DNA of 63,107 nucleotides, the filler included, from Neolecta irregularis DAH-3 (taxonomy: Eukaryota): the NCBI GenBank assembly GCA_001929475.1. It is 13 parts of 13 records of this genome, joined end to end, with 100 filler letters (N's around TTAATTAATTAA, not from the genome) between each part and the next. Parts side by side here need not be neighbours in the genome. Positions count along the whole stretch, not along the records: positions 31,519 to 34,876 come from LXFE01001311.1; positions 34,977 to 36,342 come from LXFE01001313.1; 11 more parts are not named here. One strand, given 5' to 3'. Shown here in pieces: positions 11,905-58,450 of this stretch. The first letter of the stretch is position 1; each line of letters begins with the position of its first letter. The notes under the pieces were generated by a model. That model saw only the letters and a program-made list of their open reading frames with translations. It was not told the DNA's origin and ran no database searches. The position numbers and the translations under genes were made by a program.

Positions 11905-12108
11905 NNNNNNNNNNNNNNNNNNNNNNNNNNNNNNNNNNNNNNNNNNNNTTAATTAATTAANNNNNNNNNNNNNNNNNNNNNNNNNNNNNNNNNNNNNNNN
12001 NNNNCTATGCGGATTTCAAATGCTTTATTTTATCGGCTCCATGAAGATTACGAAGGTTGCGATTGAAATTCGATGCGCTCAATCAATATTCCTGTGACCG
12101 AAAAATAT

Positions 12109-16677: not shown

Positions 16678-18132
16678 CTTTCAACATCCGATCACTGATA
16701 TTTTCTTATCTCCTGAATATCCAATCATTTCATTTAGTCTGAGGCATTCGCTATCTTTCTCTAACTAAAACATCCCAACTCTCTAAATTTTGCAATATTC
16801 AAGTCTGAAACTATGCTCCAAATTACTCTAATGTCTTTTTTTCAGATCTCTAGTTCAGTGTNNNNNNNNNNNNNNNNNNNNNNNNNNNNNNNNNNNNNNN
16901 NNNNNTTAATTAATTAANNNNNNNNNNNNNNNNNNNNNNNNNNNNNNNNNNNNNNNNNNNNCTATTATATAGTTCCTTAAATGACCGTTAAACTAATAAC
17001 ATATCCACGTCATATGTAAGAACCTATATTCTTACAATAGTAATGCCAAAGGTCGGGGAGCCAACTTGATAGGAAAGCTGATATCATTTTCGGCATATGA
17101 CACCAACATCAGGATTGAGTAAACGAGACAAGTCAAAGGGTGGAACGAAAACGTTCCGCGTCCAGATGTGCTCTCCTGGATTGGTAGAACGCCGTTGGTC
17201 CGTTGCGTTATGCGCACTCCAGGCCGGATCCCGCCTGTTCCGTTCCGCTGCTGCACTCTACTTTTCTTGGCATTTTACACCTAAATGTTGGAGGTTCTGT
17301 CTCAATCACCCCTGTTACGAGTGATAAACACATGTTTAATGCTTCCTGGTAGGAAAAGAAATTTACACATATATATCTCATTTAGTTCCTATGTATTTTA
17401 TTGTGGTGACATTCAGTTATGCGCCCGGCTGGTCGTGCAAATTGTTGCATCCAGTTTCCGTTGAAAGAACTGGGGCAGTATGCGATACTTCCCATTTTCT
17501 CGTCCGGAAAAGCCAATTAAATATCCTGTCTCGAATTAAGGATATCCCATTCTCCCCCAGGGAATCTTTACGGTGATGGCCTCAACTACCGGATTAGAAT
17601 TTAAAGCTTTAAAAAAGGCTCCAAGTAACTCAGGACATCTCGTTGAATCTCATCACCTCGAGAAAAGATTTTATGGAAATTTCATTTTGAGTAGTTTAAA
17701 GCTATATAAAGTATAATTTCTTTTTAAGCGTCTTTTCGGCAAAAGCTGTATGATCAAGGTTATGAAGAACTTGCCTGATATTTTACTCAGTTGTCTCACA
17801 TGGCATTGTTGACGAGTCTCTGATATCTCGAGACGAGAATATAGATAGCTATACCTTGGCTTGAATAGAATCCATAGTTCCACTCGAGACAATGCACATG
17901 GATCTGGGCCATAATGATAGCAAGACTAGATACCAAGTTTACATTGGGTACATTGCCCGTTATTGGAATACAATCGCGATGAACATTCAGAACGAACACA
18001 ATGCCAAGATTTGTGTCTAACTCGGTTTCTGCTTGTCTTTTTATCTTGTGGTATCTTTTTGCATATGACGTCACTTATATAACATTTCTACTGAAAGCAA
18101 GTGGGGTTTTTGTTTTGTCAACGACCGCCAAA

Positions 18133-25065: not shown

Positions 25066-25361
25066 ATTTGAAAATATCAGAGGAGGGGTTGACGGAGGTT
25101 AATGTGCCGTTCTCAAAATTTTGGTCGAATGCAACCACTTGGAATTACCGATGCACCCGCCCACTGTCCTCCTCTAGCCGCTGCGGCGCTGCCACGGCGC
25201 GCCGNNNNNNNNNNNNNNNNNNNNNNNNNNNNNNNNNNNNNNNNNNNNTTAATTAATTAANNNNNNNNNNNNNNNNNNNNNNNNNNNNNNNNNNNNNNNN
25301 NNNNAAACTTACGAAAATCTGTCCCACTCAGTGTTCAGCAAGTTTGGTTAACTTCACATAA

Positions 25362-31418: not shown

Positions 31419-31593
31419 NNNNNNNNNNNNNNNNNNNNNNNNNNNNNNNNNNNNNNNNNNNNTTAATTAATTAANNNNNNNNNNNNNNNNNNNNNNNNNN
31501 NNNNNNNNNNNNNNNNNNCCGACCCCCGACCCCACACCCCAAACCCCAAACCCCAACCCCACACCATCATCCATCATCCATCCTCCATCCGCC

Positions 31594-32456
31594 ATGGCCG
31601 CAAACCCCTGCAGCGGCATCACAGGCGCAGTCTCCCTCGCCTGCTGGGTCGTCGTCCTCGCCCCGCAGCTCCTCGAAAACTACTCCCGCAAATCGTACTC
31701 CTCTCCGTGGCCTGCACTCACCCTAGCGCCCACGGCATCAGCCTCGCCTTTATCTCCCTTTGGCTCGCCGGCGACTGCCTCAGCTTCCTCGGGTACGCTG
31801 TTCTTCCCGCACCCTCCCCTGACACTAGCGCCCTCAACGGCCATCTCATCTCCACCGTCCTCTTCCTCTCCGTCTACTTCATGGTCTCCGACGCTGCCCT
31901 CATCTGCCAAATCCTGTACTACAGACGCAGACCCCCCTCTCCCTCTCCAGACTCCCAGCCTCTCCTCCCCCAAAAACAAACTAGCCAGAATAACATCCTG
32001 TTCAACTCGGCCGCCATCGCTCTCGCCATTCTCGCCGGCATGCTCTCCTGGTTCATATACTCCCGCCTCCAACAGCACTTTGGTTCCCCGCATCCCCCAG
32101 CAATCCCGCCTGTCTCAAACGATCTCGTAACACAACTATTCGGCTGGTCAAGTGCTCTCCTCTATCTCTCCGCCCGCATCCCCCAAATAATCCAAAACCA
32201 TCACAATAAATCTTGCAAGGGTATCTTGTTCTTTTGGCCATTTGTTCACTTAATAATAGGACTGGCCTTCTTATTTGTCGCTTTTTCTACATTGGGAAAC
32301 TTATCCTTTGCAGCAAGTATTCTATTCGCCAGTACTAGTAAAACTTATATCCTCGCAAATTTATCGTGGTTGGTCGGTTCGGCTGGGACTATCTCAACTG
32401 ATATCATCATTTATATTCAGTTTATCTTGTATAGCGATGATCGTCAAGGTGGATAG
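31594..32456 (+). CDS. PQ-loop vacuolar amino-acid transporter (Ypq1/Stm1/PQLC2-like), short introns
   Basis: Two PQ loops, WVVVLAPQLLENYSRKS and YLSARIPQIIQNHHNKSC, plus WLAGD and NLSWLVGSAGT. Confidence 0.9.
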
Positions 32457-32499: not shown

Positions 32500-32665
32500 T
32501 TATTGGATTTATTTGTCTATGTATTTCATTGATTAGATTTGTTTGTGTCTTTCTTTGATTGGATTTATTCATGTATTTCTGATTGGATTGTTCATGTATT
32601 TCTTTGATTGGATTGTTCATGTATTTCATTGATTGGATTTGTTGTGTACTTTATTGATTCGATTT
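32500..32665. repeat. Degenerate AT-rich tandem repeat (gattggattgttcatgtatttc-like, ~24 nt)
   Basis: Several visible imperfect copies between convergent gene ends. Confidence 0.7.
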
Positions 32666-32773
32666 AATTTCTAATGACAAATGTATTTGTGCAACAAATG
32701 GCAATATAGGTATCTATCAATAACAGCTCTTGATACACACCCATGATGCTGTTGCCAAAACTTTCAAAAATGG

Positions 32774-33065
32774 TCATTCAAGCCATTCTTTAGGGTGATG
32801 CCACCACCAATGACGATGTCCTTCTGCTTGTTCATGATCATCGTGACCTTCGGAGCGCTTGTGATGTTCGCCGCGACCATGGGAATGACCATCGTGATGA
32901 CCATCTGGTTTTCTGTGAGGTTTATTTGGCCCAACATGAGGTCCCCCGACAGCTGCAGTAGCTTCAGGTAGAGCAACTATCCCATGTAAATCACTGGCTT
33001 GAAACTGACTTACCGGCAAATGCACTTGCTATAAAGACCGACAAACAGATACTGAGGAGTTTCAT
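32774..33065 (-). CDS. Secreted His/Trp-rich prepropeptide A (84 aa; intron 32977-33013)
   Basis: Spliced translation: MKLLSICLSVFIASAFA/VALPEATAAVGGPHVGPNKPHRKPDGHHDGHSHGRGEHHKRSEGHDDHEQAEGHRHWWWHHPKEWLE. Canonical GTAAGT donor; TATAAA about 40 nt upstream. Confidence 0.8.
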
Positions 33066-33216
33066 ACTGATTTTCTTATTCAGATTCAGCCAAAAAGTCG
33101 TCCTTTATAAAGATAAAAAATGATCATTTGATCAATGCGTATCACCGATATTTACCTTTCATTTACAGTTGTCAGAAGAACTGATTAATTTATCGATGCT
33201 GATCTCTACTTTATGT

Positions 33217-33295
33217 TTGCAAGCGCCAAGCTGGATCGTCGTGCTCGCTCCGAGGCACTTCGGAAATTACTGCCGCAAATCATACTCTCCTTCTG
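33217..33295 (+). pseudogene. Duplicated fragment of PQ-loop gene exon 1
   Basis: SWIVVLAPRHFGNYCRKSYS matches CWVVVLAPQLLENYSRKSYS at about 31640-31705, at both DNA and protein level. Confidence 0.75.
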
Positions 33296-33340
33296 CCTCT
33301 CCGGATGTCTCATCTCACTGTCTTGTTCCTATCCATCTTA

Positions 33341-33533
33341 TTATCGTTTAGGTATGTTTCCCGAGTGCTCGTGATGGACAGGACCGTTATCTCCAGAGTG
33401 CCCGTGATGGTCAATGATATTCATCTACTAGCGTCACTCGACGAGATCAGCAGTCCCAAATCGCCTGCTTTAGGATAATGGGATACAAGCAAATAAATTT
33501 ACATAGAGACAAGCAGACGATGGAGAATTTCAT
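33341..33533 (-). pseudogene. Degenerate paralogue B of the secreted prepropeptide family
   Basis: Starts MKFSIVCLSL, retains intron-derived and GCTGATCTC..GTCGAG blocks, then TGA. A His-rich tail DHHGHSGDNGPVHHEHSGNIPKR* remains; the acceptor and TATA box are lost. Confidence 0.7.
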
Positions 33534-33646
33534 GTTGATTGTGTATCCTAGATTCAGCCAAAGACTCGTCCTTGTAGACATTAAGTGATCATTTGATCAT
33601 TTTTGTAGTACCAGTCCAGCTTTGTTTATACAGTCGAACCTGGTTA

Positions 33647-33780
33647 CGCAAGGGTATATCTGGGGTATTACCAGGATATACCCGAACCAATACAGCAAGT
33701 GGCGGAGATAGAAATAAGGGACATTAGATAGAAATGTAGATCAGAGCTCCGCTCACATATCTTGGTCTAAGCTTACACGT
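33647..33780. repeat. Inverted copy of the LTR-like repeat at 1-129
   Basis: Direct sequence similarity to the reverse complement of 1-129. Confidence 0.7.
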
Positions 33781-34547
33781 CTACAAGCTTAGATTAAGGT
33801 ATGTGAGGCTTACATGTATACAAACTTAGATTAAGGATATATAACCTGATCTTATTGTACCCGAGCTTCAAGACCTGTATAACGAATTCCTCCTTATAAC
33901 GATTCAAACTAGCTTCCAAAATTGATTTGTACGGGGTCTGAACCTTCCTACGAAAATGGTTAGATTAATGCGAAACCGTTGTAAAATAAAGAAATAACCG
34001 CCGTTCCGTTATTTTAAACGAGCAAAAGATTGCTCTGCATGCTAACCACCAGCAATATAAGGGTTTAAACCAGTAGTTTGTTGAACTTTTGCTGCATTCT
34101 TTTGACTCTGGAAAACTGATGAGTTATCTCGACATATAAAGACCAAGTAAATTTCAACCAAGGCCTTTAAAACTATTGATGACTGTGAGATCAAAGTACA
34201 GATGCTTTCAATAGATGTATAAACTGAATGTGAGATCAGTCGGAAAGGGTTGACAATAATCTAGGCAACCTGAATATCCAGGCAGCAAGATCTGGCGCAG
34301 GTACCACTTTTCGAATCCCAGCAAGAGATTCTGAAGCAAGTTCATTGGATAACGTCCGGTTATGTTGCAATGGAAACATATGAATTCAACGAACGAGTCA
34401 GTGCCATTACACTCGGGTTCAATGGATGTGCAGTTCATATTTGGAACAGAAGTTTCACATGCGCGTTTATTCTATCTGATACTCAGCATGTTACAGGTGT
34501 CGCTCAACAGTCGATTCTCGATGACCAACCCCGTTATTCTTCCATCA

Positions 34548-34756
34548 TTATTCAGGAATAGGCCTGGACCCCCAGGGACGCCACGGCCAGGGTCGCCAGG
34601 GCAAATACTCTGGAGCTTGTTCATCGCGCTCGACAAGGAGATCAGCAGCTCCATCTGCAGGAACTATCCAATGTAAATCTCTGGCTTTGGGGATAGTGGG
34701 ATACCGGCAAATGTACTTGCAATAAAAAGCGACAAGCAGACAGTGAAGAATTTCAT
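34548..34756 (-). CDS. Secreted Trp/Pro/Arg-rich prepropeptide C (55 aa; intron 34664-34704)
   Basis: Spliced translation: MKFFTVCLSLFIASTFA/VPADGAADLLVERDEQAPEYLPWRPWPWRPWGSRPIPE. Same 52-nt exon 1, intron phase and intron 3' end as peptide A. TATAAA at 34795-34800. Confidence 0.8.
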
Positions 34757-35108
34757 GCTGATTGTATGATTCACATTCAGCAAAAAGGTCTCCTTTTATA
34801 AAGAAAAGTCAGCTGTGTACCACAATTCAGCTTTTGTTTATAGTTTATTCGATTCTGGTATTCAGCTGTCACAAGANNNNNNNNNNNNNNNNNNNNNNNN
34901 NNNNNNNNNNNNNNNNNNNNTTAATTAATTAANNNNNNNNNNNNNNNNNNNNNNNNNNNNNNNNNNNNNNNNNNNNTGGCGTTCTTGGTTCATTACTTTA
35001 GTCGAATAGTTATTCAGGGTGATGTGATTTGCGGATGTGGTCCTGATGCCAGCATGATATTAAAGTGAACTAGGATCATCAACCCGTTCTGATCAAGATT
35101 CTGTAACT

Positions 35109-35544: not shown

Positions 35545-36442
35545 TGGATATAACAAGGTATCAGAGCTGTATCGACGATACAGGCATTATCCGCTTTGAA
35601 TGGGCTTCTAAGGACGTCTGCGACGTGGATATTAACGATCACGAGAATCGGCCCTACCAATGAACCTGAATGATATGACCACCCGAGGCCGAAGTTCTAT
35701 CTATCAACAGCTGCCCCATCCCTCGTAATATGAACTTGAACCCTAAATCAGCCTCACTTCTTCCCTTCGCATGATCCAGTGGTTAGATTCGACCTTGGTC
35801 ATAAATATCTGCCTAAAATATCGCCAGACTATCCGAGTCATCATTATCGCACACATTCCAGAACATGGTTATTTTTCCCTCGATATAAATTAGTGAGCTG
35901 TCAAGCTGTTTTCTCTAAAAATTGTATTCGGCTATAGTACTCAATAACGGTCATAGCAAGATTAATGGCATTCTTTCGGGAAGTAAACAGACTTCGTCCA
36001 TGGGCCAAGTCCATGGTCCATCCGCAACACTTGCCTAGGACGCTCCCATTGTCCGCCTGTCTTAGCCGCCTGATTTGCTTTTTATCATATTCCTGGCTTG
36101 GCCTGTCCACAACACTGGGTTTGAGAACTATTTTCAAAACGGGGTAAATCCTTACTAGTTAATATCACGTGATATGATCCACCTGGCTGGGCCCGATGCA
36201 CCTGGCTTTCTCCCAAGTCCAGTCCATGGGCCGGATTAAGTCCTTGGTCCACTTGCAATACTAGCAACACCCCCATCCAGTCATTGGTGGCTTGTGGTCT
36301 TTGGCAATGTTACTCGTCTCCCGACATCAGCGCATCGGACCANNNNNNNNNNNNNNNNNNNNNNNNNNNNNNNNNNNNNNNNNNNNTTAATTAATTAANN
36401 NNNNNNNNNNNNNNNNNNNNNNNNNNNNNNNNNNNNNNNNNN

Positions 36443-37660: not shown

Positions 37661-37827
37661 GACACTATTCTCGCCTACTCTAACTATGAGGCATTGCACC
37701 GCCCATTGCGCACGCTGCCCCACACTGNNNNNNNNNNNNNNNNNNNNNNNNNNNNNNNNNNNNNNNNNNNNTTAATTAATTAANNNNNNNNNNNNNNNNN
37801 NNNNNNNNNNNNNNNNNNNNNNNNNNN

Positions 37828-39176: not shown

Positions 39177-39497
39177 NNNNNNNNNNNNNNNNNNNNNNNN
39201 NNNNNNNNNNNNNNNNNNNNTTAATTAATTAANNNNNNNNNNNNNNNNNNNNNNNNNNNNNNNNNNNNNNNNNNNNTTTCCTTTTTTGACCTGCTAGCAT
39301 ACCCGTTCCAGCAGGATCGTTACTGAGAGAGTTCTGGAAACCCAAGATACGCCAATAGTATCCGCCGAACTTTTTAACGGTAAATATATATCTCCATTGG
39401 CGATTTGATATCATATCTCAATACAAGAAATGTACTCTTTTCTTTTCTTTTTGGCTTTAGTTCAACTACATCTGATAGCTAGCTCCCAACCCAAAAA

Positions 39498-42476: not shown

Positions 42477-42682
42477 TTTGACTGCGATGGGGGGGACACG
42501 TTGAGTGCAGGGATAATGATATATAGTCCGCTATATTCTTCCCAATGCGGGCCGTCGTTTGGAAAATAAGGGCAATTAAGGANNNNNNNNNNNNNNNNNN
42601 NNNNNNNNNNNNNNNNNNNNNNNNNNTTAATTAATTAANNNNNNNNNNNNNNNNNNNNNNNNNNNNNNNNNNNNNNNNNNNN

Positions 42683-44192: not shown

Positions 44193-44310
44193 NNNNNNNN
44201 NNNNNNNNNNNNNNNNNNNNNNNNNNNNNNNNNNNNTTAATTAATTAANNNNNNNNNNNNNNNNNNNNNNNNNNNNNNNNNNNNNNNNNNNNTAAGAATT
44301 CAAAATAAGA

Positions 44311-47186: not shown

Positions 47187-47623
47187 CTAAATCGAGTTAA
47201 TATAACCTTGAGACTATAACGGTAAAGAATAGAATGATCCAATACGTCTCAAACGACAGGATTTTGATCTAGCAAAGTATATTATGATGCGTAACATATT
47301 CCAGAAACGAGCTCTGAAACTGACCGCTAATTTGCAGATGAATTGAAACTAATGACTTACATTGTGAGATGATAATGAAGACGACGAGCAGACCGACCAA
47401 GATGAAAAATAGCTAAAAGTTTCACGTGATCTGTGAGGTCCGGTATCAAAGAGTGCTTGTGGTACGAACATGATATACCTGGTTCTTTTTACTGTAGAAG
47501 ATATTTTGGGAGTCTTTTGTTTTNNNNNNNNNNNNNNNNNNNNNNNNNNNNNNNNNNNNNNNNNNNNTTAATTAATTAANNNNNNNNNNNNNNNNNNNNN
47601 NNNNNNNNNNNNNNNNNNNNNNN

Positions 47624-58254: not shown

Positions 58255-58450
58255 NNNNNNNNNNNNNNNNNNNNNNNNNNNNNNNNNNNNNNNNNNNNTT
58301 AATTAATTAANNNNNNNNNNNNNNNNNNNNNNNNNNNNNNNNNNNNNNNNNNNNCATGCTGCGAGTGAAATTCAATCACTCTGATACTATCCGTTCCGAG
58401 GATGGTTGTAGTGTACACGTTAGTGGGGGATCCGCTTGTTAGCCAACAAG

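Follow-up and report, generated by a model that had tools for sequence, protein, structure and literature searches.

The fungal gene-encoded defence peptides known so far are mostly stabilised by cysteines or released from repeat precursors. Kex2-processed repeat proteins (KEPs), among them the alpha-type pheromone precursors and the ustiloxin-type precursors of ribosomally made peptides with post-translational modifications (RiPPs), carry a signal peptide for the endoplasmic reticulum and are released in the secretory pathway, and most KEP types are described in PMC7329392 as confined to one genus. The conserved-signal/hypervariable-peptide families of another kingdom combine a conserved signal exon with an unalignable C-terminal peptide and occur as tandem paralogues. 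Trp-, Pro/Arg- and His-rich peptides are grouped in PMC6017362 as extended antimicrobial peptides (AMPs), and anionic peptides are named there among the AMP classes as well. In Taphrina, which is placed in the same subphylum as Neolecta, genes for small secreted candidate effectors are multiplied in tandem clusters (PMC7036362). Here we analysed a window of 63,107 bases from Neolecta irregularis DAH-3, in which one contig (positions 31519–34876, 3358 nt) carries three copies, A, B and C, of a short two-exon gene with features of several of these systems. Our tentative interpretation is that the copies form a small tandem family restricted to this lineage, that their products are secreted precursors of peptides without cysteine, and that defence is the most likely role. 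Gene A taken singly is probably a real secreted-peptide gene; we read A as a working gene, C as a plausible gene and B as a relic.

A sequence-only reading of this DNA had proposed three minus-strand paralogues with start codons at 33065 (A), 33533 (B) and 34756 (C), and both sequence inspection and blastn bear this out. The copies have about 150–165 nt in common, comprising the TATA promoter, the 5' untranslated region (UTR), a 52-nt exon 1 and a phase-1 intron of 37–41 nt, and their similarity stops about 20 nt inside exon 2. By blastn, A and C are 77% identical over 165 nt (E 2e-33; 33116–32956 versus 34807–34643), B and C 74% over 126 nt, and A and B 70% over 151 nt, with an additional collinear 24-nt piece directly after the intron in B and C. 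When A and C were compared by segment (200 shuffles each), 70/83 aligned columns were identical upstream (84%, z 11.3), 43/52 in exon 1 (83%, z 16.3) and 30/37 in the intron (81%, z 10.7), while z was 2.8 for exon 2 and 1.9 for the 150 nt downstream. Local alignment scores of the 3' parts and flanks lay at chance, the observed score being reached by 27/300, 121/300 and 36/300 shuffles. Exon 1 of A and C differs by six non-synonymous and two synonymous codon changes, and all six replacements keep a hydrophobic or small character. A signal exon conserved among paralogues and followed by an unalignable mature region is what characterises the conserved-signal/hypervariable-peptide families. Within exon 2, A and C have a Glu-Gln-Ala (EQA) motif and a final Glu in common, as the earlier reading had also stated; EQA is encoded by one exact 10-mer (any common 10-mer occurred in 22/2000 shuffles), which appears to be the sole trace of common descent left in this exon. 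A search of the window with an nhmmer profile built from the 5' module recovered only the three copies, whose match is given by construction; of the 14 rows, the best after them had E 0.13.

A and C are intact, and copy B is a pseudogene. For the intact pair, the proposed 52-nt exon 1 with a 17-residue segment, followed by a phase-1 intron with a near-identical 3' end, was likewise recovered: the intron 3' part of C, AAGCCAG.GATTTACAT.GGATAG, agrees with that of A at 22/24 positions. In A, the unspliced open reading frame (ORF) of exon 1 begins MKLLSICLSVFIASAFA, followed by G, and in both genes the split codon G/TT encodes Val. When the exons were joined by script from their coordinates, each gene gave one open coding sequence, of 84 codons in A and 55 in C. 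The exon-2 frame of A, read from 32974, yields the protein P0001, which begins ALPEATAAV and ends in HHKRSEGHDDHEQAEGHRHWWWHHPKEWLE before the stop (full reading of the exon, ALPEATAAVGGPHVGPNKPHRKPDGHHDGHSHGRGEHHKRSEGHDDHEQAEGHRHWWWHHPKEWLE), and exon 2 of C yields P0002, PADGAADLLVERDEQAPEYLPWRPWPWRPWGSRPIPE. The frames remain open after the intron for 67 codons in A and 38 in C, with chance probabilities of 0.013 and 0.087 from the composition of the contig. In gene A the TATA box is followed by a conserved 5'UTR block, TTTTGGCTGAATCTGAAT. In copy B, exon 1 shows a 5-nt gap and the TATA box is mutated (CTACAAGG in place of TATAAAGG in A and TATAAAAGG in C), and the copy lacks about 21–22 nt spanning the intron 3' end and exon-2 start of C (the gap between two B–C alignments), so that the 3' splice site is lost. 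Its frame stops after 28 codons, and a His-rich ORF remnant lies downstream (33424–33341).

Two differences among the upstream regions were also observed. A and B carry TGATCAAATGATCA, with two TGATCA palindromes, upstream of the TATA position (about 33136–33123 and 33600–33587, minus strand), and C is without it; the palindromes could be a shared regulatory site. A one-codon upstream ORF, ATG-TGA, lies 20 nt before the start codon of C (34776–34771, minus strand), where A has ATCTGA.

RNA data were available as assembled contigs, not reads, from two runs (X1 and X2) of one study, each with 6% of the sampled words. Gene A is transcribed, and its predicted intron is spliced out. The X1 contig (235 nt) covers 32691–32925 with 0 mismatches, and the X2 contig (219 nt) lies with 0 mismatches on 32780–32976 and 33014–33035. 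The X2 contig joins 32976 to 33014 and omits 37 nt bounded by CT..AC on the plus strand and hence, in the minus-strand reading, by GT..AG. This junction, 32977–33013, had been named beforehand as the one to look for in RNA-seq. Ultra-short introns are normal for this genome, being found at 32 nt in the annotated neighbouring gene for a YPQ3-like protein (31695–31726; tblastn of P0003 and sequence reading) and at 37 nt in a PrpD (2-methylcitrate dehydratase-like) gene on another contig (18889–18925).

The N-termini of both products consist of Met-Lys and a 15-residue hydrophobic or small stretch (mean Kyte-Doolittle 2.0–2.4) with A-x-A (A) or T-x-A (C) at -3/-1, which is predicted from rule-based features to be a textbook signal-peptide layout. 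The tripeptides A-F-A in A and T-F-A in C stand directly before the exon junction and place the phase-1 intron at the predicted signal-peptidase site, an arrangement that is frequent in secreted proteins. Exon 1 would then encode the signal peptide and exon 2 a disordered pro-region with a C-terminal Trp-rich tail, and the precursors would enter the endoplasmic reticulum and be cut after AFA or TFA. Beyond the signal peptide, A has 67 residues with 14 His, 4 Trp and 0 Cys, including HH and HxH patterns with Asp and Glu, and C has 38 residues with 0 His, 8 Pro and 4 Trp and a charge of -3.2. A Kex2-type protease may cut A after its single Lys-Arg (KR) to release a 26-residue His/Trp-rich peptide, while C may give rise to a 38-residue peptide, or a trimmed one, around the PWRPWPWRPW core. 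Both peptides would act outside the cell, where their Trp-rich segments may insert at membrane interfaces. Since the net charge of the A pro-peptide changes from -2 at pH 7 to +12 at pH 5, it may be activated by low pH or by metal binding; its His residues would render it cationic solely under acid conditions or when metal is bound.

The Trp residues are concentrated towards the C-terminal ends: in A they make up four of the final 11 residues, and C has four within a run of 10 close to its end. Such density is rare. Across six frames of the 63-kb window, stop-free 18-residue windows with at least four Trp numbered 48/55119 and fell at 11 places, two of which are A and C. The inner LPWRPWPWRPWGSRPIP stretch of C contains three Arg and no acidic residue. 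In the core of C a 15-nt tandem duplication encodes PWRPW twice (Tandem Repeats Finder (TRF): 34572–34602, period 15, 2.1 copies), and in A the His-rich stretch contains a 12-nt tandem repeat (32875–32905, 2.6 copies by TRF) and the run of three Trp codons reads (TGG)3. An AlphaFold model of P0001 computed without an alignment is mostly coil with one helix at residues 47–59 (the HEQAEGHRHWWWH stretch); its confidence is low (predicted local distance difference test (pLDDT) 62, predicted template modelling score (pTM) 0.14), and we take it as a hint only. In addition, the tetrapeptide WRPW occurs two times in the core of C (34572–34607, minus strand). In animal Hairy/HES repressors WRPW is the motif that binds Groucho/TLE; its presence in a secreted fungal peptide is probably a coincidence.

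These products resemble indolicidin, tritrpticin, the puroindoline domain and histatin 5 in being short, cysteine-free and extended, and in their Trp, Pro and Arg (core of C) or His (A). Several observations, however, weigh against reading the copies as a family of secreted defence peptides. These known peptides are cationic, and indolicidin and tritrpticin are cut from cathelicidin precursors, whereas at pH 7 the 26-residue tail of A after KR carries a charge of -5 and the tail of C after Glu-Arg a charge of -1.2, and the Neolecta proteins have no Pfam match. Of the indolicidin/tritrpticin features, the high Trp share in a short linear peptide is present, the net positive charge is absent, and the cathelin-type pro-domain (PMC6017362) was not detected by Pfam. 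The Trp-richness itself sits in slippage-prone DNA, (TGG)3 in A and the 15-nt duplication in C, and does not require selection. C is without a dibasic site, and A has just one. The spliced junction of A is anchored by just 22 nt on the exon-1 side, below the 31-nt rule, and comes from contigs of one study; RNA support for C is nil. The contigs lie over gene A only, and that none of them covers B, C or the neighbouring PQ-loop gene is uninformative. Finally, no orthologue was found by which purifying selection could be demonstrated.

In view of the acidic net charges and the repeat origin of the cores, a role of the peptides in defence seems possible to us but somewhat doubtful. The antimicrobial character suggested by the sequence-only reading is weakened by the charges of the tails. 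Its proposal of Kex2 processing would fit A, with its one KR, and does not fit C, in which Glu-Arg is not a canonical Kex2 site. A more specific proposal is that N. irregularis, an early-diverging ascomycete that forms fruiting bodies, makes linear, cysteine-free His/Trp- and Pro/Trp/Arg-rich defence peptides as an independent fungal counterpart of the histatin and indolicidin types, from a fixed cassette of promoter, signal exon and mini-intron joined to repeat-generated 3' exons; this we consider unlikely as a whole.

The first alternative, to which we give a low but real probability, is that the copies are transcribed without function, as a young proto-gene or a decaying family in which a duplicated module of promoter, signal exon and intron stands before unrelated repeat-derived open sequence, gene A being expressed since its promoter works, irrespective of any value of its peptide. 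It would account for the death of one copy of three, for the chance-level alignment of exon 2 and the 3' flanks, for the chance probability of the open frame of C, for cores made of short tandem repeats, for the predominance of non-synonymous changes in exon 1 and for the failure to find a homologue in the collections searched. The messy segmental duplication of the locus points the same way. Between A and B lies a fragment of the first exon of the YPQ3-like gene (33230–33287), head-to-head with gene A, which matches 31643–31700 by blastn (81% over 58 nt, E 9e-10) and residues 18–34 of P0003 by tblastn (65% identity, E 8e-4). However, two independent copies keep their frame over the intron, the signal-like exon, the Trp-rich C-terminal segment, the terminal Glu and the EQA 10-mer; the amino-acid changes in exon 1 are all conservative in character; and the 3' part of the intron is kept as well. 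These points argue against a family without function.

How such a family would have arisen is suggested by the same fragment, whose head-to-head position suggests a duplicated unit once made up of a peptide gene, a divergent promoter and a transporter gene. This suggests a further copy of the family beyond the left end of the contig, upstream of the real YPQ3-like gene, and the duplicated unit would also explain the assembly breaks at both contig ends. With identities of 83% in exon 1, 81% in the intron and 84% upstream, coding and non-coding parts are about equally diverged, and the 5' module therefore looks near-neutrally diverged and fairly young. The locus is best described as a mosaic, in which either the cassette has been kept alike by gene conversion or partial duplication, or the 3' parts have been remade faster than point mutation would allow; the tandem repeats in exon 2 of A and C support such fast remaking. 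The family would then combine a conserved or homogenised 5' module with 3' parts whose turnover is driven by indels and by slippage in short tandem repeats. Diversifying selection on the peptides is no more than possible. Exon 2 and the neutral 3' flanks are alike unalignable, and a mosaic history with repeat slippage in exon 2 accounts for the pattern as well as diversifying selection does. Accelerated peptide evolution, as in the conserved-signal/hypervariable-peptide families, is thus not demonstrated, the non-coding 3' flanks of the Neolecta copies being unalignable too. The Neolecta genes also differ from those families in kingdom, in lacking homology to them and in the absence of Cys from their peptides; the likeness further includes a pro-piece in A that ends in KR. 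The family had been proposed as lineage-specific and diversifying; the first term is upheld as far as can be seen, in that no relative is visible in the collections searched, and the second is not, given the flanks and the even divergence of the 5' module.

A second alternative, which we think rather improbable, is that the peptide of gene A is secreted to bind metal, serving to take up or buffer Zn, Cu or Ni, with the Trp-rich tail secondary. The 14 His in 67 residues, in HH and HxH patterns with Asp and Glu, are what such a peptide might be expected to contain. However, C is without His, so that metal binding cannot be the common function of the family, the His-rich part of A is a 12-nt tandem repeat, and phmmer and Pfam revealed no similarity to known metal-binding families.

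Of almost the same low likelihood is a third alternative, that the products are precursors of signalling or modified peptides (RiPPs) akin to the alpha-type pheromones or KEPs, from which the Trp-rich core is cut out and perhaps modified. The predicted signal peptide and the KR of A would fit, and Kex2-released fungal peptides are widespread and mostly genus-specific (PMC7329392, PMC6339444). Against this, the genes differ from KEPs in that KR occurs once in A and never in C, the repeated cores between Kex2 sites by which KEPs are defined (PMC7329392) are absent, and phmmer and Pfam detected no sequence similarity. Pheromone genes, moreover, are not expected to occur as paralogues with unrelated cores. 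No tailoring-enzyme gene, including a DUF3328 (UstYa-type) neighbour as in ustiloxin-type RiPP clusters, was seen on the contig, which spans only 3358 nt. A true KEP was rejected, as repeated cores are absent and the 12- and 15-nt DNA repeats are not parted by basic pairs; the MSDIN/cycloamanide type, whose precursors have no signal peptide and a conserved follower, was rejected as well.

Least probable by far, in our opinion, is an effector role, in which the peptides would target a plant root, a competitor or some other organism, in the manner of Taphrina's tandemly clustered candidate effectors. The tandem multiplication of small secreted-protein genes in the same subphylum gives this idea some plausibility, but the lifestyles differ, Neolecta being described as saprophytic (PMC7036362). 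No similarity to effector families was found by phmmer or Pfam, and general searches gave no similarity to Taphrina, none of them being aimed directly at Taphrina sequences. We know of no host.

We also searched for relatives of the family. A phmmer search of P0001 against 1,835,955,588 representatives gave 0 matches at E up to 0.001, and a Pfam scan of three proteins at E up to 10 gave 0 families; a cathelin domain was thus not detected. The ESM Atlas returned no usable match (recognition 1347), and metagenome scans gave 0 matches each for a degenerate pattern of exon 1 and for the 3' end of the intron. In the protein collection that holds the neighbouring YPQ3-like product, no entry shares three 5-residue words with the exon-2 product of A or C (the query for C being the exon-2 frame with four codons into the intron). 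A and C have been missed by the genome annotation. The collections searched are poor in unannotated fungal DNA, and the absence of relatives from them is weak evidence. A description of the family was not found in the literature covered; the gene-model and RNA-support supplements of PMC5309816 lay outside that scope and may bear on whether such genes were predicted and filtered. The family is new, and its kind is a familiar one, that of lineage-specific tandem genes for small secreted peptides.

The window is composed of 13 contigs with linkers of the form N44-TTAATTAATTAA-N44 between them, so that apparent neighbours across a linker are not real neighbours, and the true neighbours of the peptide genes are the genes on their own contig. 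This contig contains the YPQ3-like gene and the three peptide-gene copies and no other gene. The ORF at 31881–32453 (plus strand) is 100% identical to 'putative vacuolar amino acid transporter YPQ3, partial [Neolecta irregularis DAH-3]', the best of 66 proteins at E up to 1e-5 from 447 candidates, and the locus is confirmed as fungal, belonging to the Taphrinomycotina; the second-best match, from Terfezia claveryi, is 41% identical. A sulfate permease ORF of the window was assigned through the ESM Atlas to Eukaryota and no more narrowly, which is uninformative. N. irregularis is uncultured, and its DNA and RNA were obtained from fruiting bodies collected in the field; the assembly is described as 14.5 Mb long, its N50 being 16 kb, and as containing 5,546 predicted genes (PMC5309816). 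The coordinates are collected in Table 1.

Table 1. Coordinates of the peptide-gene copies, the associated gene fragment and the contig linkers in the 63,107-base window
Feature	Positions	Strand	Remarks
Gene A, TATA box (TATAAAG)	33103..33109	-	44 nt before ATG; conserved with C
Gene A, exon 1, 52 nt	33014..33065	-	ATG 33065; 17-residue signal-peptide-like segment and first base of split Val codon
Gene A, intron, 37 nt, GT..AG, phase 1	32977..33013	-	GTAAGT...ATAG; RNA-seq contig skips exactly these bases
Gene A, exon 2 including TGA stop (32776-32774)	32774..32976	-	His-rich pro-region, KR, 26-residue His/Trp-rich tail ending in Glu
Gene A, 3'UTR, minimum extent	32691..32773	-	X1 RNA contig, 32925 down to 32691
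Copy B, pseudogene	33341..33599	-	5' module 33599-33458; ATG 33533
Gene C, TATA box (TATAAAA)	34794..34800	-	44 nt before ATG
Gene C, exon 1, 52 nt	34705..34756	-	ATG 34756; signal-peptide-like segment MKFFTVCLSLFIASTFA and one base; from sequence only
Gene C, predicted intron, 41 nt, GT..AG, phase 1	34664..34704	-	GTATCC...ATAG; prediction only
Gene C, exon 2 including TAA stop (34550-34548)	34548..34663	-	Acidic pro-piece, then Pro/Trp/Arg core
Pseudogene fragment of exon 1 of YPQ3-like PQ-loop gene	33230..33287	+	Between A and B; marks segmental duplication
Linkers, first six	11905-12004, 16862-16961, 25205-25304, 31419-31518, 34877-34976, 36343-36442		
Linkers, last six	37728-37827, 39177-39276, 42583-42682, 44193-44292, 47524-47623, 58255-58354		

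The contig also contains several repeated tracts. The space between the YPQ3-like gene and gene A, whose 3' ends face each other, is filled by a tandem array of a 25-nt unit (32511–32665, 6.2 copies, 83% match), and C/A-rich short repeats (CCCCAA-like, CCATCAT) extend from the first base of the contig to the ATG of the YPQ3-like gene (31519–31595), where they are probably a pyrimidine-rich promoter or 5'UTR tract. Between B and C, at about 33836–33763 on the minus strand, two copies of a sequence of about 37 nt form an imperfect direct repeat (ccttaatctaag.ttgta.ac.tgtaagc...), which was seen by eye and was absent from the TRF output at score 30.

If our interpretation is true, a linear, His/Trp-rich secreted family would widen the picture of fungal defence peptides and offer new peptide scaffolds. 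The locus would also provide a compact example of a constant promoter and signal-exon cassette whose peptide-coding exon is remade by slippage. Two-exon mini-genes with introns of 37–41 nt have gone unnoticed in an annotation for which 99.4% RNA support is reported (PMC5309816). A class of short secreted peptides may therefore be lacking from the 5,546 genes counted in this complex fungus, which is unusually poor in genes.

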